64,000 nucleotides of DNA from Escherichia coli (GCF_965641715.1 NZ_OZ282453.1), one strand, 5' to 3'; counted from the first letter of the stretch, positions 6,872-20,995 are shown. Made by a program: numbers and translations. The notes: generated by a model not told the origin, from the sequence alone.

Positions 6872-8965
6872 TTAACCTCGGCTCACCGTTTTCGATTCCA
6901 TCCAATAAATGACCCGGTTGGATGTGGGCTGATCGCCAACAACTTTGCCATCTGCAGAGATTAGCTTCAGCTCTTTATTAGCCTCATCACCGAAGTAAAT
7001 CATGCGGTAGCGAAAATAACCGCCCCAGGGTTCGCGTCCACCCAGCGAACTTTGCATAAACCAGGCGCGGGAGTCGTGAACCTGGTCATCATAGAGAGCC
7101 AGTAATTCAGCGCAGGGCTGAGTACGCGTTCCCGTTCCCAGTGAATCAATAAAAAATTGTGGATAGAGTCCGTCTCCCATAGCCTTAATTTGCTGATATT
7201 CTTTTGCTTCATCATCGCCATTAATCAGATACACCGGATATTTAGGAATGACATCCACAAGAATCTGAATGGCTTTCTCCATGACGCTGCCGTTAATATC
7301 GCGCGTCCATCCTTTATAATCGCTCTGAAATTCTCGGGCTGCCTCTCGCAACTGATACTGAGCATTGGTTGGGTCAAGGATAGGAATGCCCTGATTACTT
7401 TCATCAAGTGTGCCATTCCCTTTCTGCTTGTTCGCCCGCTCTTTTTCAATATTTTCCATTTGTTCTTTACGCGCTTTAGCCTCTTTATCAAGTCCATCTT
7501 TATCCAGCTGTGGCGCCTTAATATAAAAAGGTTGCACAAGAAGGCTGTTATTCGCATAGCGACCGATACGCCAGGCGGTGATCCAGCCGATCTGATCGCT
7601 AATTGCGCTTTCAAGAACCTGGGCAAGTTGATAGGAGTGATAATCTTCCCTCGTATCAATCATTTCTTCTGTACCCTGCAAGGTGGTGTTCAGCAGCGTT
7701 TGTCGCCAGATGTTGAAGCGTTTTGTTAATGAATTAGCAATCGTAAATTCCTTTACGCTAGAAGGACTCATAATTCGCAGAGGCGACACACCTTTTATTA
7801 ATGGAGTAACAAATTTAGAATAAACAGCAAGTGGTGCTCCTGAATCAAATGCAGCAAGATACATATCATGCAGTGCTATCTGAGAAAGAATTTCGCCTGA
7901 GTCACCACAGGACTTCCCCTGATCGCGAACGGGATAGCCACCACCGACATCAGAGTGCATCCCCGGATAGATAATTTCCTCTGCATTTAAAGGATAATTT
8001 CCGTCTGGACGACGGATTGAATCCAGCGGAAAGCACAGCCGCTGCTCATGCGCGGCAACGAAGTGGCGGCAGCATTTAATCAGGCCGGGAAACTGCCTCT
8101 CATCAGGGAGTTGCTGAGTACTATCGGCCCATCCCATATGACCGGCAGCGCCCGGTAAAACATGCGCCGCCCCCACAGAAGCTACGGTATCCAGCAGCCC
8201 CAAAAACTCAATACTGACAGCTAACCCGGCCAGCATCACCTGTTGCTCCTGCGGGCAAGCTAACTGAGTCAACCAGTTAACAAAAGTTCGTGCTTCCGCT
8301 GCGCCACGGGAAAATCCGTAGATAAACAGCTTTACGTTTAGCAGGCGCGGACTGGCTTGCTCTAACAGTCCCTGTAATTTTTCCAGGTAGGGGTTAATCA
8401 CATTGCGACGATTCACTTCACCAGTCATAGGCCAGGGAGCGCGCATAAGAGGAATGTGCTCTTTTGCCACATTATCATCCAGTCGCTTATGGGAAGGGTC
8501 AATGGAATAGCTCAGGGCATCCACGAGGCGTAATAATGCCCAATTAATTCGATCTTCACCACCAGTAGCGAACTCCAGCCCGCTGTTGCTGTAATCCATT
8601 TCACCTATCTTGGGAAATGGTGTGCCTACACCCGGTATATAGTAGTTAAAATATCCCTGTTCTTCTGCGTTCTGATAGGTCGTATGAAACAGTTTGGCAA
8701 TATTGATTGGGTGTCCAGGAGTGTCATTATATTCATTATTATTTGTACCATCAAAAAACAGACTAATATGCAGACTTTGATTACACGTAAAGCCAATTCT
8801 AAATCCAGCCTGTTTACTACAGTTGGTTTTGTGCTCTTCTGTTTTATTGATTTGTTTTAGGTAGTTCGCGTTTACCTGCGCTTCAGATAATATTAATCGC
8901 CCATTTTCAGGAAACGCTGGGGGGGCATAACACGGAAAAGCCAGACCACTTATTTCGCTGGACAT
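6872..8965 (-). CDS. T6SS phospholipase effector candidate, Tle1-like (DUF2235 alpha/beta hydrolase, 697 aa)
   Basis: GxSxG nucleophile motif in KLFIYGFSRGAAEARTFVNWL; last gene of a vgrG-remnant/DUF4123 cargo module; family assignment from motif and context only. Confidence 0.55.
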   Translation of the reverse strand: MSSEISGLAFPCYAPPAFPENGRLILSEAQVNANYLKQINKTEEHKTNCSKQAGFRIGFTCNQSLHISLFFDGTNNNEYNDTPGHPINIAKLFHTTYQNAEEQGYFNYYIPGVGTPFPKIGEMDYSNSGLEFATGGEDRINWALLRLVDALSYSIDPSHKRLDDNVAKEHIPLMRAPWPMTGEVNRRNVINPYLEKLQGLLEQASPRLLNVKLFIYGFSRGAAEARTFVNWLTQLACPQEQQVMLAGLAVSIEFLGLLDTVASVGAAHVLPGAAGHMGWADSTQQLPDERQFPGLIKCCRHFVAAHEQRLCFPLDSIRRPDGNYPLNAEEIIYPGMHSDVGGGYPVRDQGKSCGDSGEILSQIALHDMYLAAFDSGAPLAVYSKFVTPLIKGVSPLRIMSPSSVKEFTIANSLTKRFNIWRQTLLNTTLQGTEEMIDTREDYHSYQLAQVLESAISDQIGWITAWRIGRYANNSLLVQPFYIKAPQLDKDGLDKEAKARKEQMENIEKERANKQKGNGTLDESNQGIPILDPTNAQYQLREAAREFQSDYKGWTRDINGSVMEKAIQILVDVIPKYPVYLINGDDEAKEYQQIKAMGDGLYPQFFIDSLGTGTRTQPCAELLALYDDQVHDSRAWFMQSSLGGREPWGGYFRYRMIYFGDEANKELKLISADGKVVGDQPTSNRVIYWMESKTVSRG

Positions 8966-9504
8966 GTTGCTGGTTCCTTCATCTCGCGGGGTTCTTTGAT
9001 GGGATAATTCGGTGTGCCATACTTCTGGCAGACGGTTGTCACTTTAATCTGATTACACGTTAGAAAATGAACGGTCAGGCCACAAAGCTCAGCATCGTAT
9101 TCCGGGATATCAACAATTGCGGTATGTTGAATGTAACTTTCTTTTAGTTTTTTCTCCCAGGCCTGATATTTATCCCAATCCTTATAGAGTGGTGGCGGAG
9201 GTACTGTATTTGGGGTAATTTCCCATTCAACCTGGGCTTTTAATCCAGAATGCCACTTATCTGGCAGCATAACGCAACAATATCCTCCACCGTCTCCGAA
9301 TGGACCAATATTTGGTCCGCCGTAACCATTGATGTGTATATAATTTATATCCTTATCCGTATGATTTATCCCATTAATATCCACAGCAGTGTAATCACCG
9401 CTATTTTTTGCCATTGAACAGCCTGATACTGCAAATAAAATCATTAGAGAATAACATTTGAAAATCGTTCTCATACTGATACTTTTCCTTATTTTGCTGG
9501 ACAT
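8950..9504 (-). CDS. Small lipoprotein, candidate Tle immunity protein (Tli-like)
   Basis: Lipobox-type signal peptide MRTIFKCYSLMILFAVSGC if translation starts at ATG 9474 (ORF track start 9504); 16 nt overlap with the start of the Tle1-like gene. Confidence 0.45.
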   Translation of the reverse strand: MSSKIRKSISMRTIFKCYSLMILFAVSGCSMAKNSGDYTAVDINGINHTDKDINYIHINGYGGPNIGPFGDGGGYCCVMLPDKWHSGLKAQVEWEITPNTVPPPPLYKDWDKYQAWEKKLKESYIQHTAIVDIPEYDAELCGLTVHFLTCNQIKVTTVCQKYGTPNYPIKEPREMKEPATCPAK

Positions 9505-9817: not shown

Positions 9818-10588
9818 TTATCCTTCGAAGTCCCGCAAAGCTCCGAAATATTTCGCGTCATTGGCTCTGAAAGCAATATCAAGACAGTGGGCAAAATAGC
9901 TTTCCTGACTGAGTTCACTGACTGCTTTCTCCTTCATCAGGACTTCAGCGTCGCAGATACAGCCCATCAATCCCACCTGTACATCATCCACCCGATTCAT
10001 CTCCGGGTTGTCAGTAAGCCTGCGTTCTGGTGAAAAACTTCCTGATTTCCAGTTAATCTCACCATCACGGTCTAACCAGCTCCAGAACAACGCAATATCA
10101 GTAAATGTCGCCTGCTGCTCGTTAGTCAAAACATGTGTGAACAGTAAAGGGAACACCCGATTATCATAGTAACGCAGCAATCCGGTCTGTTCTTCCCACT
10201 GAACCTGTGACAATACCTGAAGATGCCGCCCCAGCAGGTCGAATGTAAGAGGGGATATCAACAAAGTAAGACGCGGCGTATCAGCAAATGACGCCATCAG
10301 TTGTGCCAGAAATTTGCGATGGCTACTGAGCGCAAAGTACAGGCGTAACACTACAGGGGAATACTCCATCGTCTCAGCTTCAGGCGTTCCTTCAAACAGG
10401 GCATACCAGTGAATGGCTGGCCACAGATGAAGTATCTCATTTTGCAAAGGTTGGTCGGTTCCAGCCTGGTCAACAAGCACATCTATGTAATCCAAACCAG
10501 CGGCAGAACAGAATGATTCAGCCTGCTTCAGCCAGATAATATATTTGTCTTGATCGGTAGCGCGTGGCGATACTGTTATCATCGTCAT
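9818..10588 (-). CDS. DUF4123-family T6SS effector adaptor/chaperone (Tap/Tec-like)
   Basis: 256 aa; N-terminal YIDVLVDQAG and central LLRYYDNRVFPLL resemble the DUF4123 signature segments (compare YAIVDGA / LMRFYDPRNIWVL in ORF 18198..19040); immediately follows a vgrG tail. Confidence 0.55.
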   Translation of the reverse strand: MTMITVSPRATDQDKYIIWLKQAESFCSAAGLDYIDVLVDQAGTDQPLQNEILHLWPAIHWYALFEGTPEAETMEYSPVVLRLYFALSSHRKFLAQLMASFADTPRLTLLISPLTFDLLGRHLQVLSQVQWEEQTGLLRYYDNRVFPLLFTHVLTNEQQATFTDIALFWSWLDRDGEINWKSGSFSPERRLTDNPEMNRVDDVQVGLMGCICDAEVLMKEKAVSELSQESYFAHCLDIAFRANDAKYFGALRDFEG

Positions 10589-10594
10589 TCTCCC

Positions 10595-11051
10595 TTATCC
10601 ACGAGGCGCAAAAGCGGCGGCGGCTTCCTGCGCCCTTTTCAGGCACTCCTTACACACCGATTTTTCTGGCGCTTCCTCACCCTCATCGTTGTTATCATTC
10701 TGATCGGACGATGCATTACTATCATTTTGCTCAGCCGCTAAACTTTTATCATCTGCCAGCGCTTTCAGAACCGCCGGTTGCAGCGTCGGCACCGGCGTTC
10801 CCGGACTACCGCCGCTATTGAGATTGATTTTCGGCCCGACGATGTCCACGCCCCCTGAATGGATGACCACAAACGAACCGCCCACCTTCAGGCTTATCCG
10901 GCTGCTGCTCTCCAGCACCACATCGCCCTCCACCTTTAACCACGCCACCGCAGTCAATGGCATCACCGGTTCTGGCGGTAGGTTTATCGTCGATAAAGGC
11001 GGAAGAGGTGTTTCCGGCTCTTAAGAAATATTTACGCACATGCACCAGCAT
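10595..11051 (-). pseudogene. Remnant fusing the 3' end of a PAAR gene to the 3' tail of a vgrG gene (internal deletion)
   Basis: One frame encodes FIDDKPTARTGDAIDCGGVV (PAAR C-terminus, compare PAAR 15133..15417); the adjacent frame encodes LKVEGDVVLESSSRISLKVGGSFVVIHSGGVDIVGPKINLNSGG (VgrG tail, compare vgrG2) followed by an acidic linker. Confidence 0.6.
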
Positions 11052-11082
11052 TACAGAAAATAAAACCTGCGATACATTTTAA

Positions 11083-11859
11083 TCAATAAGGTTGCTTTAC
11101 CAAGCTTCCATCGATATTGATGGAAAATTCATTAGACCTAATATGAACAGAATGTTGCTCATCATCTTTATCTAATATTTGATTAACAAAAAAAAACGTA
11201 TTTTTATCAAATTCATAATTATCACATCCCTCTCCACTAAATGATATAGCTCTAAAATCATATTCATTACATGAGTATCTTTTCATCAAAATAGAGAGGA
11301 ATGTTTCATTAATTGATTTTAATACAAACCATTTTCTCCTAACAAGTTTGTAGTTTAATGTTTTTATATGATAATTATTTAAACTGGGGAGAAATGAATG
11401 CATATCATTCAATTTTACATCAAAAGATATTTTTTTACCTGCCGTAATTTCCACCCATCGGCTCAAATTCAAATCAAGCTCAAAGGGACAAAAGCCTCCT
11501 AGATAGTCTAAGCTAATATTTCCTGATGTAATCAAGAATTCGTCATCACACAAAGCATCAAATACATCTCCATTTCCTTTTTGGAAGTTCTTTGGATAAT
11601 ATATTCTGGGGAGAAAATACGATTTAGTACTACTGTTATAAAAAGTTATAGTAGCTAAAATATTTTCAGCATGTGGCTTAACCACCAATTTAACAACAAC
11701 ATCATTTGTTAATTCATTACTTATATTTTCCTCTGGCGCTAAATTATGGCTAAGATAAATAATTGGTTTCCCATTGTCACTTCTTCGTTCAAAACCGAAT
11801 CTGTATTTTTTTACAAAAAGATTCTCATTATCTATTGCAATTGCAATAGATAATGGCAA
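11083..11859 (-). CDS. Hypothetical protein, candidate immunity protein for the upstream metallopeptidase-like effector; N-terminal signal peptide is out of frame
   Basis: Body ORF starts at TTG 11859; a 31-codon ORF from ATG 11923 (one nt after the effector stop) encodes MKRLAFYNLNYVVLMVFFSLFFAIIYCNCNR in the other frame; the two frames would join if one base were removed from the homopolymer tract. Confidence 0.45.
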   Translation of the reverse strand: MPLSIAIAIDNENLFVKKYRFGFERRSDNGKPIIYLSHNLAPEENISNELTNDVVVKLVVKPHAENILATITFYNSSTKSYFLPRIYYPKNFQKGNGDVFDALCDDEFLITSGNISLDYLGGFCPFELDLNLSRWVEITAGKKISFDVKLNDMHSFLPSLNNYHIKTLNYKLVRRKWFVLKSINETFLSILMKRYSCNEYDFRAISFSGEGCDNYEFDKNTFFFVNQILDKDDEQHSVHIRSNEFSINIDGSLVKQPY

Positions 11860-11924
11860 AAAACAAAGAAAAAAAAACCATCAGTACAACATAATTTAGA
11901 TTATAGAAAGCCAACCTCTTCATC

Positions 11925-12728
11925 TTATTTCCCCGTCAACTCATCAAAACATTTTTCTATCTCTTTTATTTTATCCTCTACTTTTTTTGCTAACATATTC
12001 TCATCTTGAGCTTCAATATCTTCATCATTTAATTTTATATAAAAATATCTTTCAACATTATATGCATTCTCAAATAACTGATCTTTACGCAATGTAACCA
12101 GATCATTAGCCACTGAAACATGTTTCTCATAGCTAACTTCATCCTTATTACTTGTTGCGAACTTATTAATACCCGTATAATCCTGAGTCCACATACCACC
12201 TTTTTGATTGTCACCCCAATACCAAAATATATGGGACATTTCATGGCAAAGTGTACTTACATGAGAGTCTCTACCTGTAACCGACTGTTTTATACCATGT
12301 CTGTATTCAAAATGCGCTCCGATATTTACAATGTAAGGAGGATCAAGATGTGGACTAATAAAAGCAGCAAATTCATTGCAGTTCGTATAATCTTTATAGC
12401 TTTCGATCGTCAAACCATTTGCAATCGTCATTATTCGTCTGATGCCATCCATTATGAATAGTCTCGCTTGCATTCGTTTCCCAGTATCTTCCCCAACTTT
12501 TCTGATTTTTATAATGTCCTCGCCTTTAAGGCCAAAAACTTTAATAAAATCTCGTTGTTGTTCCCCCTCCCATGACATAATATCATCTGCTCTTTTCAAT
12601 AAAACCATTTTCTGTGCTTTACAAGCCTTACTCATCATTATTTTAAATTTATTTGTAATTTTTTGCGGTACTACACATACTTGCGACTCGGGTTGTGAAG
12701 TCCCACTAGTATTATTATTCCCTGCCAT
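11925..12728 (-). CDS. HExxH zinc-metallopeptidase-like T6SS effector candidate (268 aa)
   Basis: HEMSH motif followed by WTQDYTG (loosely aspzincin-like); start ATG at 12728 (MAGNNNTSG) overlaps the vgrG2 stop; the longer ORF 11925..13103 is not used because it overlaps vgrG2. Confidence 0.55.
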   Translation of the reverse strand: MAGNNNTSGTSQPESQVCVVPQKITNKFKIMMSKACKAQKMVLLKRADDIMSWEGEQQRDFIKVFGLKGEDIIKIRKVGEDTGKRMQARLFIMDGIRRIMTIANGLTIESYKDYTNCNEFAAFISPHLDPPYIVNIGAHFEYRHGIKQSVTGRDSHVSTLCHEMSHIFWYWGDNQKGGMWTQDYTGINKFATSNKDEVSYEKHVSVANDLVTLRKDQLFENAYNVERYFYIKLNDEDIEAQDENMLAKKVEDKIKEIEKCFDELTGK

Positions 12729-15114
12729 AATGCCCCTCCGGCTCAATATAAAAAGCATCCGAAAATAACAATTGGACTTTAATTTCCTGTGCTGTATCTG
12801 TATAAAATATTTCTGTATATCCCTCTCTGTCTGTTTCACCACGCGTCTGTGTGCCATCCTCAAAAAAGGCAATATACTGCGTCTCTGAATACGGTATCCC
12901 GTCATCGTCCGTAAAATGGAACTGGAGGGTATATTTTTCAGGATCATCTTCATCGTCACCGCCATCACCTCCTCCGTCACTCCCTGCGGGATTGCCACTA
13001 TCCTCTCCGGAGTCATCACTGCCATCATCACTGCTCTCATCCTCCGGAGCCTCCAGCACCGCCGGCTGCATCGTCCCCACCGGTGTCCCCGCACTGCCCC
13101 CACCGTTCAGGTTTATCTTCGGCCCGGCAATATCCACTCCGCCCGGCTGAATGACGATAAACGAGCCACCCACCTTCAGGCTTATCCGGCTGCTGCTCTC
13201 CAGCACGATATCCCCGTCCACTTTTATCCCCAGCGCGCCACTCACCTTCTCCGCCAGGTCCCCCTTCACCTCCAGGCTGTGCTTCCCCTCCACCAGGCTG
13301 ATGTGGTTACCCGTCGTCTTATGCTCCTGCTTCCCTTTCACCGTCACCCTACGGTCATTTCTGACGTACAGACCGTCATCGTGACTCACGCTCACCGTCC
13401 GGTCATTTGTCACCTTCAGCGTCTGGTCGTTACGTACCGTTATGCTCCGGTCGTTCGCCACCGTGATACTCTGGTCGTGGCCTCCTTCTTTTCTGGTCCC
13501 GACCTCAACCGTCTGCCCCTTCACCACCGTTATCTTCTGGTCGTTACCAATGGTCTCCGTATGGTCATGTTTCACATCCGTTGTCCGGTCGTTGAGCACC
13601 TCCGTATCCATGTTCTTCTGCGCATGGATATACACCTGCTCATTACTGGTGGCGTCCTCAAAGCGCAACTCGTTAAATCCGCTTCCTTTATAGGTCTTCG
13701 ACCGTATCGTCATCTGCGTCTTCGTCCCCGGCAGGCTCCCCGGCGAACGGTTGTCCTCATGGTACGTCCGGCCCATGACCAGCGGCTGGTCCGGGTCTCC
13801 GTTCAGGAAGTCAACAATCACCTCCTGACCCACCCGCGGTATCGCCAGGTTACCAAACCCCGGCCCCGCCCACGCCTGTGATACCCGCACCCAGCATGAA
13901 CTCGCCTCCGTCATCCCGTGATAACGGTCCCAGTGGAACTTCACCCGTACCCGGCCATGTTCGTCGCAGAATATCTCCTCACCCTTCGGCCCGGTGACAA
14001 TGGCGCTCTGCGGCCCGTCCACCTTCGGTTTGCTTTGCAGCCGTGGACGCCACGTCCGGTCCGCCGGTATCACCTCTAACTGATTTCCCAGCGTGGTTCC
14101 TCTCCCCTGGCTGCCGTGCAGCGCCTGCGGCTGGCTTCCTGACAGTATGCTCTGTACCACCTGCCATTCACGGTTCAGCATCTTCTGCGGATGCCCCGTC
14201 AGCGTAAACCGCGTTCCCGGCCACAGCCTCGGCGAATTACTCTGCCCTGTGGCCTTTTCCGCATCACTGCGCAGGCTCTCCATCTGGTACAGCGTGAAAT
14301 CCTTGCCGTGCTGCTCATCCTTGAACCTTCCCGGATAATCAAATATCTCGTACTGCGCCAGCTGTCCGTTCAGGTTCTCACCCTGCTGCTCATACATCCC
14401 CGGCCAGTCCGGCACCTTAAACGTGTAATCCTGGCTCTGCACCGACGACGGGCGGACATGCGCCTCATAACGGAACATACTGAGACACTCCGTCTCCGCT
14501 CCTGCCGATGTGTCCGGGTTAAACGGAAGCTCTCCCGCCTGTGACAGCCCCGCCACATCGTCGCACAGCGTCAGCTTCTGCTCCGGACTGTCCGCCGCAA
14601 ACCGCTCAAAGAAGAAAATTCCTTCTTCCGCCCACAGCCGAGCCAGAAACGCCAGGTCGCTCTCCCCGTACTGGACACAGAACTCCCGCGCCGGATGGTC
14701 TTCATAAAACAGCGGAGTCCACTCCGTGACGCCGTTCTCGTTCAGTAACGTGGCCGATATCGTCCGGATATCCTGCTGCTGAAAAATACGAAAGTTCTGC
14801 CGCAGCCCGCACCGCCATAACGGCGGCTCAATACGCAGGTGATAACGCATCTGCCAGCCGTTGTTCTCCTGCATGCCAAAGCCCGCCACCACGCCGGTGA
14901 CATAACGCTGCGCCACCGCGCCCTGCCAGATGGCCAGCGTCGCCTTCTTCTCCAGCAGCATCTCCGCCGTCTGCATAAAAGAGTCGCTGGCAACATCCAC
15001 ACTCATCACAAACGGATAAGACTGGTTCTGGATTAACCTGAAATTCACCACTGCAAAGGTGTCCGGCTCCTGGCCGTCAATCTCCAGCGTAAAGCGCAGA
15101 CCGTTTAAGGACAT
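12715..15114 (-). CDS. vgrG: VgrG spike protein with C-terminal extension (799 aa)
   Basis: N-terminal 480 aa identical to the vgrG at 19037..20995; gp27/gp5-like repeats (VKGDLAEKVSG..., ISLKVGGSF...); acidic D/E/G/S linker and an extra ~60 aa C-terminal domain. Confidence 0.9.
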   Translation of the reverse strand: MSLNGLRFTLEIDGQEPDTFAVVNFRLIQNQSYPFVMSVDVASDSFMQTAEMLLEKKATLAIWQGAVAQRYVTGVVAGFGMQENNGWQMRYHLRIEPPLWRCGLRQNFRIFQQQDIRTISATLLNENGVTEWTPLFYEDHPAREFCVQYGESDLAFLARLWAEEGIFFFERFAADSPEQKLTLCDDVAGLSQAGELPFNPDTSAGAETECLSMFRYEAHVRPSSVQSQDYTFKVPDWPGMYEQQGENLNGQLAQYEIFDYPGRFKDEQHGKDFTLYQMESLRSDAEKATGQSNSPRLWPGTRFTLTGHPQKMLNREWQVVQSILSGSQPQALHGSQGRGTTLGNQLEVIPADRTWRPRLQSKPKVDGPQSAIVTGPKGEEIFCDEHGRVRVKFHWDRYHGMTEASSCWVRVSQAWAGPGFGNLAIPRVGQEVIVDFLNGDPDQPLVMGRTYHEDNRSPGSLPGTKTQMTIRSKTYKGSGFNELRFEDATSNEQVYIHAQKNMDTEVLNDRTTDVKHDHTETIGNDQKITVVKGQTVEVGTRKEGGHDQSITVANDRSITVRNDQTLKVTNDRTVSVSHDDGLYVRNDRRVTVKGKQEHKTTGNHISLVEGKHSLEVKGDLAEKVSGALGIKVDGDIVLESSSRISLKVGGSFIVIQPGGVDIAGPKINLNGGGSAGTPVGTMQPAVLEAPEDESSDDGSDDSGEDSGNPAGSDGGGDGGDDEDDPEKYTLQFHFTDDDGIPYSETQYIAFFEDGTQTRGETDREGYTEIFYTDTAQEIKVQLLFSDAFYIEPEGHYGRE

Positions 15115-15132
15115 AAATACCTCTCAGACATA

Positions 15133-15417
15133 TCAGCCTATATTTACCGTACCGCCACCAATGACCACACCACCACAGTCGATGGCATCACCGGTTCTGG
15201 CGGCGGGCAGGCCGTCAATAAAGACGGTTGAAGAACCTCTGGCGATTTTACGGGGATGAGGTGGATGCTTCGGTTTAGCATGCGGCGTCAGCGGATCTCC
15301 CTGGCGAGCAGCAGGTAATCCATCAATAAATACCGTGGATGAAGCCGCAATGATGACTGTCTCACGGTAGCCATCATGCTGAGTACCTTTGTCGTTTAAT
15401 CTGGCAGCTAAAGGCAT
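15133..15417 (-). CDS. PAAR-domain spike tip protein (94 aa)
   Basis: Duplicated SSTVFIDGLPAAR(Q/T)GD motifs and C-terminal AIDCGGVVIGGG; located directly upstream of vgrG2. Confidence 0.8.
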   Translation of the reverse strand: MPLAARLNDKGTQHDGYRETVIIAASSTVFIDGLPAARQGDPLTPHAKPKHPPHPRKIARGSSTVFIDGLPAARTGDAIDCGGVVIGGGTVNIG

Positions 15418-15527: not shown

Positions 15528-16538
15528 TCAAGTAACAGGGATAAACTGACCATCAATCAGCGAAAATACCGGAGCGTAATACCCCATACGCTCTTCACCA
15601 CTTTCATCTGTAAAACGGTAAGTCAGTGGGGAATACGTTGGCATTGATTTATTATATAATTGCACCATACGCCCATTATTCATAACCCGGACGGCATAAT
15701 CGTTCCACCTGATAGGCAGTATTTTGGCTTTTCCACCCTCAAGGTTATCTTTCGGAAAGTGGGAGAGTAATATGTCATCCTCAGAGTCACCGGTTGTGGC
15801 TGACCATGCCTTCAGCGCCTCTGTGTTATATAACTTAAGACGTGCTCTGTCCCCGCTGTTAATAATTGTTGCCATTTCGGTATAGGTGGCTTTTAACTTC
15901 CGTAGCTGCTCGTCGCTTCCGGTATAGGGGGTTGCCCGCGTCCAGGCCCATTCAGGAAGCCCCGTCACCGTGACTTTTTGTGTAAACTGATACACCTTCA
16001 TCCCTTTCGGAAAATAGGTTTCATCAAAATAATCTGGATCTATAAATCCTGGCTCCGCCTGCTCTGCCAGGATCTCTTTCCTGATAACGGGATGCACGCT
16101 GTCTGACCGGGCTTCAGGTATGCCCTGCTGGTTGATGGTCACTTTTATCGAAGAAAGCAGGGTTTCTTCCTGTTTAATAAAACGAACCAAATCCAGGCTG
16201 CACCCTGCTTTTTGGAAAAAACGCCCCCGTTCTTCCGTACTGGCAGGCTTGTCAGAAAACCATCCTAACGCCCCGATTTCCAGACTGATTTCATTTTCTC
16301 CATTCGCCATCAGCATCATGGCATTGGTGCTGGATATGGCCCCGGTGGAATCACCATTCTCTCGCCATGCGTTCATTCGGTTACTGAAGCCGAGGACACC
16401 GTTGGTTTTGATGGCACAATATGATTCCTCAATATTAAACTTACTGCGGATTTTTTGTGGATTTTCACCCGAGTACAATCCTGCTCCCATAATACCTCCT
16501 GACAGTAAAATAACCGATATTAAATGTTTTACCTTCAT
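15528..16538 (-). CDS. Secreted hypothetical protein (336 aa), candidate immunity protein for the 523 aa effector
   Basis: N-terminal signal/anchor MKVKHLISVILLSGGIMGAGLYSG; immediately downstream of the effector candidate. Confidence 0.45.
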   Translation of the reverse strand: MKVKHLISVILLSGGIMGAGLYSGENPQKIRSKFNIEESYCAIKTNGVLGFSNRMNAWRENGDSTGAISSTNAMMLMANGENEISLEIGALGWFSDKPASTEERGRFFQKAGCSLDLVRFIKQEETLLSSIKVTINQQGIPEARSDSVHPVIRKEILAEQAEPGFIDPDYFDETYFPKGMKVYQFTQKVTVTGLPEWAWTRATPYTGSDEQLRKLKATYTEMATIINSGDRARLKLYNTEALKAWSATTGDSEDDILLSHFPKDNLEGGKAKILPIRWNDYAVRVMNNGRMVQLYNKSMPTYSPLTYRFTDESGEERMGYYAPVFSLIDGQFIPVT

Positions 16539-16604
16539 AATTATTTTCTCTTAAAAGGAAAAGACTCTCATTATATTGAGTGATTTTAATTGCTGTAATA
16601 TCAC

Positions 16605-18176
16605 TTAATAATCCATGCCTATTGTCCACGTTGTCACTGGCTTCGGCGGTATTACTTTTTTCTCTACCGTGCGTTCTTTACCGTATAAATTAACCCGCAA
16701 TGGTGAATCTTTTATCTCCATAGGATCACATAACTGCCACTCAACGGTATCTTTCTTCTCGGGTTTCTCACTCTTTTCTTTCCCCTTTCCCTTCCCTTTA
16801 CTTTCACCATAAGATACATCCGCCTTAAATTCGAACTTTCCTTTAATGCCGTCATGAAATAATGCCAGGTCCAGTCCGTCATCATGTGAATCGAATCCAA
16901 AGCCAGCTTTCGCCTCTATAGAAGCGGTCGCTTCTGCGGTCAGTTGTACAACAAAAACATTCGCCTCAAACGTCGCACTCACCACACCTTTTAAACCGAG
17001 CTTGATGTTACTTTCCTTTACATTAAACTCCCATTTTTTATCCTTTTCAGCGTATACTGCGCCAAGATCAAGATTAATCTCCGCTGAAATCTCGATATAG
17101 CATTCAACACTGGCTCCGTTTTTACGGAGATATTCACGACATCTGTTGACCAATGACTCGACTTTACAGTATGCACATATAAATGAAATAATATCGAATC
17201 TGAACGACGCTTCAAAAAATGGGGCACCAAACAAACCATAAAAATGACAGGGGCCATCCTGGATATCGGTATATTGATAGGCATACGATATACCCAGTTT
17301 AACGGGTTCTATTTTTGCACTGAACAATGCATATTTGCGCGTACCATTATTATTGTCAGGATCTGGCGCAAAATATTTATTGACATTCTTGACCAGAGAG
17401 TCAATTCTTCCTATCTGTTCCAGTTGCTTTGTTTGTCGAAGTTTTTTTATCTCTTTTTCATATTCACTTGTGTGTTCAACATTAGCTATTTTTACGCCAA
17501 AATCGACAGTCAGGGAAGTCTTGTTTATCCACTCAAACTCAGCAGTGGTATTTGTCCAGCCGCTACGGAGTTTATTTTTATCCCTGGGCTTGGTGTTCTC
17601 CATTGCGTCCCTGGCTTTTATTCTTTCGTCACGCCGCTCTTTTACTGTTCGCGTCTGTTTTGATGACGAAATCTCATAGCTGAACCCTGTAGTAAACCTA
17701 ATTTCCATTGTAGGATAAACATCAATTTCAACATAATTGCCACATTCGTAACAACTGTCAATTCTGACTGAATAATGGGCAGGTTCATAATGATTCTTAA
17801 GTGGAGAGGATATTGCCCCCAAATAATCCCATGGTACGCGAAATGTACCCATAGCAATTATTTCACCTTCAGACAAGTTATCATCCAAAGTGACCTTATT
17901 AGGTATTCCGAAAGGTTGCAGTATCTTATGATTATTTTCTGATTCTTCCTCTAACCATGCCTCATGTGTTCCACTTTTATCGCACTGGTAGGTAATGGTA
18001 ATTATACCATCACATCCGGAACCATCATCCAGTAGCTTAAAACGCGCCACTCCTTCTTTTGACCAGAAATGTTTCTCGCCGGCCTCTGGAAAATCACTAA
18101 TAACATCAAAAATACATGGATCAGGTATGCCGCATTCCACACAGGGCTTTCCGGCTGTCGAAGATGGAGATGTCAT
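16605..18176 (-). CDS. Unassigned T6SS effector candidate (523 aa), DUF4123-adaptor dependent
   Basis: Follows vgrG1 and a DUF4123 adaptor; no catalytic motif recognised; lysine-rich low-complexity stretch (KGKGKGKEKSEKPEKK) near the C-terminus. Confidence 0.5.
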   Translation of the reverse strand: MTSPSSTAGKPCVECGIPDPCIFDVISDFPEAGEKHFWSKEGVARFKLLDDGSGCDGIITITYQCDKSGTHEAWLEEESENNHKILQPFGIPNKVTLDDNLSEGEIIAMGTFRVPWDYLGAISSPLKNHYEPAHYSVRIDSCYECGNYVEIDVYPTMEIRFTTGFSYEISSSKQTRTVKERRDERIKARDAMENTKPRDKNKLRSGWTNTTAEFEWINKTSLTVDFGVKIANVEHTSEYEKEIKKLRQTKQLEQIGRIDSLVKNVNKYFAPDPDNNNGTRKYALFSAKIEPVKLGISYAYQYTDIQDGPCHFYGLFGAPFFEASFRFDIISFICAYCKVESLVNRCREYLRKNGASVECYIEISAEINLDLGAVYAEKDKKWEFNVKESNIKLGLKGVVSATFEANVFVVQLTAEATASIEAKAGFGFDSHDDGLDLALFHDGIKGKFEFKADVSYGESKGKGKGKEKSEKPEKKDTVEWQLCDPMEIKDSPLRVNLYGKERTVEKKVIPPKPVTTWTIGMDY

Positions 18177-18197: not shown

Positions 18198-19040
18198 TTA
18201 TTGCGGGATAAATCCCAGTTCCTGTTGTGCAAGTTCATGTACCCGAATATGTCCCGGGTATGACTGATTGCTGAGTTGTTCATACCAGTCATCCGGAATA
18301 TATCTGAGATCGATTATATTTTTTTTCAGTAATATAAGCGTCATTGTTCTGACGGAACGATCATCTGCTATATTTAATGACTGGCAAAAAGAGAAATAAT
18401 CTTCTGCCAGAATTCGGGATGATTCAGCTTTTGATAAATCATCCCATCCGTCTTTATCTACATTTTCTTCGATAAATGCAGATAATATATCAAGATAATT
18501 ATCCCGTGCCTTTCGTTCCAGTTGGCTATATTGTCTGTAACTCAGCGTCAGTTGTGATGGCCGTTCTGCCCTTATATTCATAGTTTCTGCGGGACGGACG
18601 GAAGAAAAATTATCCTCACGACATTCTTCACCATAGCGGGTACTTAGCTGTCTGACGGGGCTGATAAAAGAAAGAAGCTGGCGGGGGGTCAGAACTTCCG
18701 CTAATACCCATATATTCCGGGGATCATAAAATCGCATGAGAACAGGTTTCTCCTGTTCGGGGATCATAACCCACAGATAACGTCTGAAGTGTTGCTGTAG
18801 CTCACGTATGGATGACTCAGAAGTAAGATATATTCCCCACGGCGACGCCTTATCACTCAGCCATGCTTCAACTTCCGGAACAACCTCCACGAGATAAGGG
18901 GCCAGCGCGACCAGATCCGGTTGTATGGGTTCTGCATACAGACAACAGTGCGGGGGATTCACCTCGTTCAGAAAATCCAGCAATCCTTCCTCCACAGCGC
19001 CATCCACAATGGCGTACTGCACGGGTGCCGTTTCCATCAC
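18198..19040 (-). CDS. DUF4123-family T6SS effector adaptor/chaperone
   Basis: YAIVDGA near the N-terminus and LMRFYDPRNIWVL in the middle; 4 nt overlap with the vgrG1 stop. Confidence 0.65.
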   Translation of the reverse strand: MMETAPVQYAIVDGAVEEGLLDFLNEVNPPHCCLYAEPIQPDLVALAPYLVEVVPEVEAWLSDKASPWGIYLTSESSIRELQQHFRRYLWVMIPEQEKPVLMRFYDPRNIWVLAEVLTPRQLLSFISPVRQLSTRYGEECREDNFSSVRPAETMNIRAERPSQLTLSYRQYSQLERKARDNYLDILSAFIEENVDKDGWDDLSKAESSRILAEDYFSFCQSLNIADDRSVRTMTLILLKKNIIDLRYIPDDWYEQLSNQSYPGHIRVHELAQQELGFIPQ

Positions 19041-20995
19041 TTATCCTCCTTCGGACAATGCGACACGAACATCGAACCACTTCCGGCTGCGGCTTTCAGG
19101 ATCACCGGGCGCATCGGCAGGATCACATCCCCCGGACTGCCCCCGCCGTTAAGATTGATTTTCGCGCCCTTAATATCCACGCCGCCGGAATGGATCACCA
19201 CAAATGAACCGCCCACCCGCAGACTGATTTTGCTGTCGCTCTGTAAAACAATATCGCCCTGTACGCTGATACCCAGCGCGCCGCTTATTTTCTGTGCCAG
19301 ATCGCCTTTCACCTCCAGTCCCTGATTGCCCTCTGTCAGGCTGACGTGGTCTTTGGTGGTTTTATGGTCCTGTTTACCTTCAACCGTCACTTTCCGGTCA
19401 TTTGCCACCACCAGGGATTCATCATGCCCGATGCTGACCGTCCGGTCATAGTTGACCCGCTTATCCTTGCTGTTCAGCACAACGACCTGCATATTTTTCT
19501 GTGCGTGCAGATAAATTTCTTCCTTGTCCGTGGCGTCCTCAAACCGCAGTTCGTTAAATCCGCTTCCTTTATAGGTCTTTGACCGTATCGTCATCTGCGT
19601 CTTCGTCCCCGGCAGACTCCCCGGCGAACGGTTGTCCTCATGGTATGTCCGGCCCATGATTATCGGCTGGTCCGGGTCTCCGTTCAGGAAGTCAACAATC
19701 ACCTCCTGACCCACCCGCGGTATCGCCAGGTTACCGAACCCCGGCCCCGCCCACGCCTGCGATACCCGCACCCAGCATGAACTCGCCTCCGTCATCCCGT
19801 GATAACGGTCCCAGTGGAACTTCACCCGTACCCGGCCATGTTCGTCGCAGAATATCTCCTCACCCTTCGGCCCGGTCACAATGGCACTCTGCGGCCCGTC
19901 CACCTTCGGTTTGCTTTGCAGCCGTGGACGCCACGTCCGGTCTGCCGGTATCACCTCTAACTGATTTCCCAGCGTGGTTCCCCTCCCCTGGCTGCCGTGC
20001 AGCGCCTGCGGCTGGCTTCCTGACAGTATGCTCTGTACCACCTGCCATTCACGGTTCAGCATCTTCTGCGGATGCCCCGTCAGCGTAAACCGCGTTCCCG
20101 GCCACAGCCTCGGCGAATTACTCTGCCCTGTGGCCTTTTCCGCATCACTGCGCAGGCTCTCCATCTGGTACAGCGTGAAATCCTTGCCGTGCTGCTCATC
20201 CTTGAACCTTCCCGGATAATCAAATATCTCATACTGCGCCAGCTGTCCGTTCAGGTTCTCACCCTGCTGCTCATACATCCCCGGCCAGTCCGGCACCTTA
20301 AACGTGTAATCCTGGCTCTGCACCGACGACGGGCGGACATACGCCTCATAACGGAACATACTGACACACTCTGTCTCCGCTCCTGCCGATGTGTCCGGGT
20401 TAAACGGAAGCTCTCCCGCCTGTGACAGCCCCGCCACATCGTCGCACAGCGTCAGCTTCTGCTCCGGACTGTCCGCCGCAAACCGCTCAAAGAAGAAAAT
20501 TCCCTCCTCCGCCCACAGCCGCGCCAGAAACGCCAGGTCCGACTCCCCGTACTGCACACAGAACTCCCGCGCCGGATGGTCCTCATAAAACAGCGGCGTC
20601 CACTCCGTGACGCCGTTCTCGTTCAGTAACGTGGCCGATATCGTCCGGATATCCTGCTGCTGGAAGATACGGAAGTTCTGCCGCAGCCCGCACCGCCATA
20701 ACGGCGGCTCAATACGCAGGTGATAACGCATCTGCCAGCCATTGTTCTCCTGCATACCAAAACCCGCCACCACGCCGGTGACATAACGCTGCGCCACCGC
20801 GCCCTGCCAGATGGTCAGCGTCGCCTTCTTCTCCAGCAGCATCTCCGCCGTCTGCATAAAAGAGTCGCTGGCAACATCCACACTCATCACAAACGGATAT
20901 GACTGGTTCTGGATTAACCTGAAATTCACCACTGCAAAGGTGTCCGGCTCCTGGCCGTCAATCTCCAGCGTAAAGCGCAGACCGTTTAAGGACAT
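19037..20995 (-). CDS. vgrG: VgrG spike protein (652 aa, no C-terminal extension)
   Basis: Full-length VgrG architecture; first ~480 aa identical to vgrG2, diverging in the C-terminal third. Confidence 0.9.
   Translation of the reverse strand: MSLNGLRFTLEIDGQEPDTFAVVNFRLIQNQSYPFVMSVDVASDSFMQTAEMLLEKKATLTIWQGAVAQRYVTGVVAGFGMQENNGWQMRYHLRIEPPLWRCGLRQNFRIFQQQDIRTISATLLNENGVTEWTPLFYEDHPAREFCVQYGESDLAFLARLWAEEGIFFFERFAADSPEQKLTLCDDVAGLSQAGELPFNPDTSAGAETECVSMFRYEAYVRPSSVQSQDYTFKVPDWPGMYEQQGENLNGQLAQYEIFDYPGRFKDEQHGKDFTLYQMESLRSDAEKATGQSNSPRLWPGTRFTLTGHPQKMLNREWQVVQSILSGSQPQALHGSQGRGTTLGNQLEVIPADRTWRPRLQSKPKVDGPQSAIVTGPKGEEIFCDEHGRVRVKFHWDRYHGMTEASSCWVRVSQAWAGPGFGNLAIPRVGQEVIVDFLNGDPDQPIIMGRTYHEDNRSPGSLPGTKTQMTIRSKTYKGSGFNELRFEDATDKEEIYLHAQKNMQVVVLNSKDKRVNYDRTVSIGHDESLVVANDRKVTVEGKQDHKTTKDHVSLTEGNQGLEVKGDLAQKISGALGISVQGDIVLQSDSKISLRVGGSFVVIHSGGVDIKGAKINLNGGGSPGDVILPMRPVILKAAAGSGSMFVSHCPKEDK

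Follow-up and report, generated by a model that had tools for sequence, protein, structure and literature searches.

A probable type VI secretion cassette of Escherichia coli with a transthyretin-tailed VgrG, an M35-like peptidase effector and a frameshifted immunity gene

The closest described relatives of the locus analysed here are two toxin modules of the Escherichia coli type VI secretion system (T6SS). The locus, which consists of the spike gene vgrG2 with its PAAR gene, a predicted metallopeptidase effector gene and an immunity-type gene, lies in a stretch of 64,000 nucleotides of E. coli DNA (GCF_965641715.1, NZ_OZ282453.1), referred to below as the window. In E. coli BCE049, the 'M35-peptidase' of effector module 5 reduced the survival of E. 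coli only when it was fused to a PelB leader (PMC7904677). In E. coli PAR, AKO63_2955 was toxic, AKO63_2956 neutralised the toxicity, and the fragment AKO63_2954 showed binding to VgrG as well as to the peptidase; the authors credited DUF2345 with effector binding and equated the M35 protein with the toxin domain of VgrG2b (PMC10673891). The C-terminal region of Pseudomonas aeruginosa VgrG2b is a DUF4157 thermolysin-like gluzincin, whose third ligand, Glu983, lies 44 residues past the zinc-binding motif (PMC6899460). VgrG1 of enteroaggregative E. coli (EAEC) carries, on a flexible linker, a transthyretin-like (TTR) domain that binds the N-terminal strand of Tle1 by fold complementation (PMC10715212).

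We conclude, at a probability of about 0.8, that the region is a single T6SS cassette made up of a PAAR protein, a VgrG2 with a TTR-like tail, an M35-like aspzincin cargo effector and a periplasmic immunity protein. All of the relevant genes lie on the minus strand, and the open reading frames (ORFs) of PAAR, vgrG2 and the effector are intact in the window. The PAAR spike-tip protein of 94 aa (15133..15417), encoded directly upstream of vgrG2, matched NCBIfam NF033420 (T6SS_PAAR_dom) with an E-value (E) of 7e-47, exceeding the curated cut-off. The vgrG2 gene (12715..15114) encodes a spike protein of 799 aa with a gp27/gp5 core, a beta-helix, an acidic linker and the C-terminal TTR-like domain. 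The effector gene (11925..12728) begins with an ATG at 12728, shares 14 nt with the 3' end of vgrG2 and has its stop codon at 11925-11927, and the ATG of the immunity gene is located at 11923, one base past that stop. The cassette is part of an E. coli T6SS cluster, between fadE-ivy-yafV and hcp/tssBC, and T6SS core genes adjoin it.

Comparison with the published modules identified the cassette as a further allele of the described E. coli T6SS module of peptidase toxin, immunity protein and TTR-tailed VgrG. As judged from sequence, all three of its parts are homologous to published and tested E. coli modules. The BCE049 locus FQU84_13630-13640 was among the homologue matches; its peptidase FQU84_13640 (WP_000342575) is 57% identical to the window effector over the full length (E 1e-120), and VgrG-O2 of the same strain is 90% identical to VgrG2, C-terminal domain included. 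Gene order, together with the published forward primer, which matches without mismatch at a single site, located the PAR genes. AKO63_2955 shows 28% identity to the effector of the window (E 7e-29), and AKO63_2956 is 31% identical (E 3e-30) to an intact allele of the window immunity gene, in an alignment that reaches the C-terminus. The fragment AKO63_2954 contains a TTR-like domain matching the tail of VgrG2. Full-length homology to the tested proteins of both strains places the effector in their family; PAR carries a second effector/immunity pair beside another VgrG. A previous sequence-only reading of the window had proposed a VgrG-linked, periplasm-acting metallopeptidase with a downstream immunity gene, which the tested homologues (PMC7904677, PMC10673891) and the linkage of the parts bear out. 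Its suggestion of an undescribed toxin-immunity pair does not hold, since members of the family have already been found to be toxic, to act in the periplasm and to be neutralised by the cognate downstream protein.

The effector itself is a protein of 267 aa (not 268, as first counted), and it carries both of the motifs reported for it, HEMSH at residues 162-166 (12231..12245) and WTQDYTG at residues 180-186. It had been described as a metallopeptidase of no assignable family, but an identical protein is already present in RefSeq as 'peptidase M35' (WP_047624962), and its fold is that of the M35 aspzincins. A word-indexed protein search returned only 9 relatives, and an exhaustive profile search was required to delimit the family, which is small and mostly enterobacterial: the 1.84 billion representative proteins searched gave only 49 clusters at 50% identity. 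In an alignment of 29 members, none departs from H162, E163 and H166, and at least 90% have D183. The invariant signature of the family reads TGxDSxVSxLCHExSH, with GGMGTxD and NAYNIERYF downstream of it.

When the family profile was compared with sequences in the PDB, it matched AsaP1 at E 2e-7 and GfMEP, the Grifola peptidyl-Lys metalloendopeptidase, at E 6.5e-6, in alignments spanning HExxH through the third-ligand Asp (the TKD/DDL Asp). The AlphaFold model of the effector was confident, with a predicted local distance difference test score (pLDDT) of 90.3 and residues 1-24 disordered, and the five best Foldseek matches to it were all M35 structures. Both the aspzincin catalytic fold and the HExxH motif are present. 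D183, in the sequence GGMWTQD (12180..12182), lies 17 residues after HExxH, as against about 9-11 in M35 enzymes, and aligns with the Asp of GfMEP and AsaP1. On the strength of the profile matches, the structural matches and the alignment, we assign H162, H166 and D183 as the predicted zinc ligands and E163 as the predicted catalytic base. A zincin fold with HExxH and a third ligand is what the sequence-only reading had expected from a profile and structure check, and the check returned an aspzincin fold with the aligned Asp183 as the putative third ligand. The effector family is thus a family of predicted aspzincin (M35-like) zinc metallopeptidases and not of VgrG2b-type gluzincins. No paper came up in a literature search that combined aspzincin with type VI secretion.

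VgrG2 is encoded by a single ORF that matched TIGR03361 (TssI/VgrG) at E 5e-180 and, in Pfam, Phage_GPD, Phage_base_V and Gp5_trimer_C; DUF2345 was matched only marginally, with an independent E-value (i-E) of 0.062. Residues 688-726 (12937..13053) form an acidic, flexible linker rich in Asp, Gly and Ser, as read from the translation. The sequence KYTLQFHF..., beginning at residue 727, opens the TTR-like domain (residues 727-784; 12763..12936), the putative effector docking site. The other spike gene of the cluster, vgrG1 (19037-20995), encodes a protein nearly identical to VgrG2 over residues 1-480; at the DNA level the two genes are about 98% identical for the first ~1,445 nt and divergent beyond. 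The linker and the C-terminal domain are absent from vgrG1, and the earlier statement that vgrG2 differs from it by an acidic linker and an extra domain of ~60 aa was confirmed by translation and by this comparison.

A search of PDB sequences with the last 161 aa of VgrG2 gave no match, and the TTR assignment therefore needed a structure model, in which the last ~60 structured residues form a five-stranded beta domain. The tail is a transthyretin-like beta-sandwich that forms the last domain of the protein, behind a flexible linker, as in EAEC VgrG1. The C-terminal extension of VgrG2 is accordingly a known type of cargo-loading domain and not a new feature. A TTR-like domain 52-67% identical to that of the window ends the vgrG before every family effector with known context. 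Such ends were seen in both PAR VgrGs, in Buttiauxella and in two metagenome lineages, where the effectors are only ~30% identical. The backbone of the PAR VgrGs is only 25% identical to VgrG2, yet both end in the same kind of domain. In PAR (twice), in Buttiauxella and on metagenome contigs, a vgrG end with the TTR-like domain is accompanied by both the effector and the immunity homologue. In the window, likewise, the effector gene directly follows a TTR-tailed vgrG, the arrangement that marks the E. coli T6SS 'M35' family. The three parts of the cassette stay linked even where the VgrG backbones are unrelated. The TTR-like tail is the one element common to all VgrG carriers of the family, which refines the published loading model based on DUF2345, and we infer from these sequence comparisons that it probably serves as an effector-specific docking element.

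Two observations concern the same domain in other genomes. In PAR (L014 21121-23638), the separate 'VgrG' and 'DUF2345' genes of PMC10673891 correspond to one vgrG in the annotation of the Prokaryotic Genome Annotation Pipeline (PGAP), which records a frameshift and an internal stop in it; the TTR-like domain falls within the 'DUF2345' construct, and this affects the reading of the published binding result. On one metagenome contig (L028 317-553), a stand-alone ORF of 78 aa encodes the TTR-like domain alone and sits between the TTR-bearing vgrG end and an effector gene of the M35 family.

The gene downstream of the effector is a homologue of AKO63_2956, but in the window it is broken. The sequence-only reading had correctly placed an ATG one base past the effector stop, opening a signal-peptide-like N-terminus, and had drawn the gene as 11083-11923. 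That span of 841 nt is not divisible by three and cannot be one ORF; the frameshift, which divides the gene into two ORFs, had been missed. The ATG at 11923 opens an ORF of only 31 codons (MKRLAFYNLNYVVLMVFF..., 11828..11923; stop at 11828-11830), which is signal-peptide-like and runs out of frame past a tract of nine T (11869..11877; A9 on the plus strand). The body of the gene follows in another frame as 258 codons from a TTG (11083..11859), and in this frame it has no export signal. Alignment with E. coli JX21CE8, whose chromosome is 98.7% identical to the window over 11000-15123, identified the cause of the frameshift as T9 at 11869-11877 in place of the T8 found there. In genomes with T8 the ATG opens an intact ORF of 279 aa. 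As written, the immunity gene of the window has lost its signal peptide to the frameshift and cannot make an exported full-length protein. The additional T is explained either by a genuine mutation that inactivates the gene or by a sequencing error in the homopolymer.

A second variable T tract lies toward the 3' end of the gene (11188..11196; T9 in the window), where the conserved C-terminal frame is kept; the C-terminal motif IRxNxxxINIxG, common with the PAR homologue, appears only in the T9 frame of this tract. The combination in frame throughout, T8 at the first tract and T9 at the second, yields the product of 279 aa, represented by WP_105458168 and WP_164476071, and was seen in PapRG-04-4, A30, 33F4 and 32F4. 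T8/T8 genomes encode a C-terminally truncated product of 249 aa, and in genomes with T7/T8, or with a one-base deletion (a G-deleted T8) by the first tract, the N-terminus is out of frame. The window itself is T9/T9. Among the loci in which both tracts were readable, the window included, only 4 of the 19 had the fully in-frame pair. The second set of loci had been chosen for an identical effector and is uninformative on effector conservation.

The immunity protein belongs to no Pfam or NCBIfam family. Its body is 41% identical to the UPEC132 homologue and 43% identical to that of Buttiauxella, and the five homologues examined have N-terminal hydrophobic segments, three invariant Cys and a conserved C-terminal motif; the segments and the Cys residues fit an exported protein. 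As a separate observation, the homologue in BCE049 (L015 8118-8889), next to the tested M35 peptidase, is annotated as two fragments, and it differs from the intact UPEC132 gene (L002 5104-5889) at four homopolymers within about 780 nt. These differences reflect either decay or long-read homopolymer error, and some of the tract differences among public assemblies may accordingly be sequencing errors.

The idea that selection maintains the poly-T tracts as a phase-variation device was considered and found unsupported. In a first-order Markov simulation, two A/T runs of at least eight bases were not unusual at 29% G+C (P about 0.10), and the immunity homologues carry different homopolymer runs at different places. 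Since such runs are expected at this base composition and differ among homologues, the tracts look like mutational decay, or in part sequencing error, and not like a designed switch.

On the basis of the homologues, a mechanism can be proposed. The effector would dock on the TTR domain of VgrG2, hung from the spike by the acidic linker, possibly through its conserved, disordered N-terminal ~24 residues by strand complementation as in Tle1. It would then be fired into a neighbouring Gram-negative cell and cleave an envelope protein or peptide in the periplasm, while the exported immunity protein would bind the peptidase and protect sister cells. Toxicity limited to the periplasm, neutralisation by the downstream protein and binding to a VgrG fragment are carried over by analogy from the papers on the homologues.

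Several points weigh against this interpretation. The immunity gene is frameshifted in the window and in many other carriers, which is odd for an actively used toxin. The match of Pfam Aspzincin_M35 (PF14521) to the effector is below significance (i-E 0.0022, 18.9 bits) and covers part of the model, and no NCBIfam model matches the effector. The GTxDxxYG motif is partial, the window sequence GGMWTQDYT keeping only TxD. The function of the effector in this cassette is predicted from homologues. The published reverse primers for AKO63_2955 and AKO63_2956 agree with the RefSeq sequence of PAR in the encoded amino acids but not in their DNA; for AKO63_2956 the primer specifies identical C-terminal residues, and for AKO63_2955 the encoded residues agree with the end of the ORF by our own reading. 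Finally, the published effector binding may be due to the TTR domain or to the beta-helix/DUF2345 part.

The alternative that survives best is that the cassette is decaying and effectively unused in the window strain, with an immunity pseudogene and an effector that is silent or undelivered. The split of the immunity gene at T9 where intact alleles have T8 and the scarcity of in-frame loci speak for it, as do related genomes with a vgrG that carries a frameshift (23CRST027 and 23CRST031) or an IS600 insertion, and a neighbouring Tle1 module that has lost its own vgrG. The effector, vgrG2 and PAAR ORFs are nevertheless all intact in the window, and a difference of one base in a homopolymer may have arisen in sequencing. 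Runs of nine T allow transcriptional slippage in E. coli, and slippage at T9 could restore some full-length immunity product. We therefore regard an unused cassette as unlikely, though as an explanation to be taken seriously. Concerning the damaged carriers, M35-linked vgrG genes are frameshifted in both of the strains named above, and in one carrier among L004, L005 and L012 (23CRST027, 23CRST031 and 2018-05-2CC) IS600 cuts vgrG and also truncates the peptidase gene.

A further alternative keeps the cassette as proposed but replaces a folded periplasmic protein as the target with the peptide part of peptidoglycan or the Lpp tether. The authors of PMC7904677 predicted cell-wall damage, and the nearest characterised enzymes are Lys-specific, GfMEP being named in the PDB as a peptidyl-Lys metalloendopeptidase; that the Lys-like diaminopimelate or the C-terminal Lys of Lpp might be cut is our own speculation. 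We consider a cell-wall target unlikely. Less likely still is a joint proposal: that this is the first aspzincin-class antibacterial effector of a T6SS, distinct from VgrG2b; that the TTR-like tail and not DUF2345 is the loading determinant; that the enzyme has Lys-type specificity on Lpp or the diaminopimelate stem peptide; and that the T tracts act as an on/off or dosage switch. If it were true, the slippery T tracts would change, through mutation or transcriptional slippage, which sister cells are immune.

That the effector acts mainly against the host as a virulence protease, in the manner of AsaP1, the secreted M35 toxin of Aeromonas salmonicida, and not as an antibacterial toxin, appears very improbable. 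AsaP1 is among the nearest structural and sequence matches, and deletion of the whole T6SS1 and T6SS2 clusters of BCE049 lowered virulence in mice (PMC7904677). Against this, a dedicated immunity-type gene follows the effector at every locus examined, the BCE049 orthologue is lethal to E. coli when it acts in the periplasm, and deletion of the BCE049 effector locus with the M35 peptidase left mouse survival unchanged (PMC7904677). Membership of the VgrG2b C-terminal family, a DUF4157 gluzincin depleting envelope lipoproteins, has hardly any probability left and was rejected: HExxH, T6SS delivery, periplasmic toxicity and an exported immunity protein are common to both (PMC6899460, PMC10673891), and VgrG2b likewise has a TTR-like region before the toxin domain, but the type and spacing of the third ligand (Glu983 at 44 residues versus Asp at 17) and the fold differ, the family profile matched no VgrG2b-length protein or PDB chain, and the top Foldseek matches were M35 structures, with none from VgrG2b.

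The window thus adds one allele to a small family of T6SS peptidase toxins. The gains for that family are its identification as aspzincin, the TTR-like tail common to its VgrG carriers, and the finding that many carriers have the immunity gene out of frame; identifying what the toxin cleaves would be the main prize.

At least 80% of the query 11000-15200 is present in only 12 of 5,426 complete genomes. The vgrG2 core has a G+C of ~0.59-0.60, against ~0.30 in the genes for the effector and the immunity protein, a drop which suggests that the cassette was acquired. The genes vgrG1 and vgrG2 form a direct repeat of ~1.45 kb with roughly 98% identity, and in genomes of the JX21CE8 type hcp is followed directly by the M35-type vgrG, the block of vgrG1, DUF4123, the 523-aa protein, the 336-aa protein and PAAR being absent. 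The repeat and the absence of the block are consistent with gain or loss of cassettes by recombination between vgr genes.

That block includes, downstream of vgrG1 and a DUF4123 adaptor gene (18198-19040), the minus-strand region 15528-18176, which encodes a protein of 523 aa (16605-18176) and one of 336 aa (15528-16538) with a hydrophobic N-terminus. Neither matched NCBIfam, and the 523-aa protein also had no Pfam match; the two are a candidate effector/immunity pair. On the other side of the cassette, a gene remnant on the minus strand (10595-11051) consists of ~70 nt from the 3' region of a PAAR gene fused directly to the final ~340 nt of a third vgrG, which carries its own distinct tail. 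The remnant precedes DUF4123/Tla1 (9818-10588), DUF3304 (8950-9504) and Tle1 (6872-8965), and its reduced state indicates that the Tle1 module has lost its own spike gene.

Of the known systems, the BCE049 module has the same order of PAAR, TTR-tailed vgrG, M35 protein and immunity-type gene, and its effector keeps all of the motifs. It is, however, an orphan island between yddH and yncG, whereas the cassette of the window lies inside a T6SS cluster; its effector is a diverged allele (57% identity), its immunity protein is 41% identical to that of the window, and the tests in PMC7904677 concern the toxicity of the peptidase. The PAR cassette (AKO63_2953-2956) belongs to the other E. coli T6SS cluster, at the metV tRNA genes. 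Its effector shares the motifs TGxDSxVSxLCHExxH, GGMxxxD and NAYNxERYF with that of the window, whereas its VgrG, besides the diverged backbone (25% identity), has a long DUF2345 region, which in VgrG2 is matched marginally at most.

EAEC VgrG1 (PDB 6SJL) resembles VgrG2 in having a beta-sandwich of ~60 aa at the C-terminus and a cargo effector gene directly downstream. The two TTR domains are 25% identical, the cargo is the phospholipase Tle1 in one case and a peptidase in the other, and the type of VgrG backbone differs. P. aeruginosa VgrG2b with PA0261 is alike in being an HExxH zinc peptidase with spike delivery, periplasmic toxicity, an exported immunity protein and a TTR-like region before the toxin. 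Its peptidase is fused to VgrG, whereas that of the window is a separate cargo protein, and it has the gluzincin fold with a Glu ligand in contrast to the aspzincin fold with an Asp 17 residues past the motif. The M35 aspzincins GfMEP (Grifola frondosa, 1g12), AsaP1 (Aeromonas, 2x3a) and deuterolysin (1eb6) share HExxH and the downstream aligned Asp with the window effector, at 14-20% identity. In comparison with these enzymes, the window effector has an insertion of eight residues that separates HExxH from the Asp, additional disordered residues at the N-terminus and a helix at the C-terminus, and carries neither a secretion signal nor a propeptide; unlike them, by analogy with its tested homologues, it would be delivered by a T6SS together with an immunity protein.

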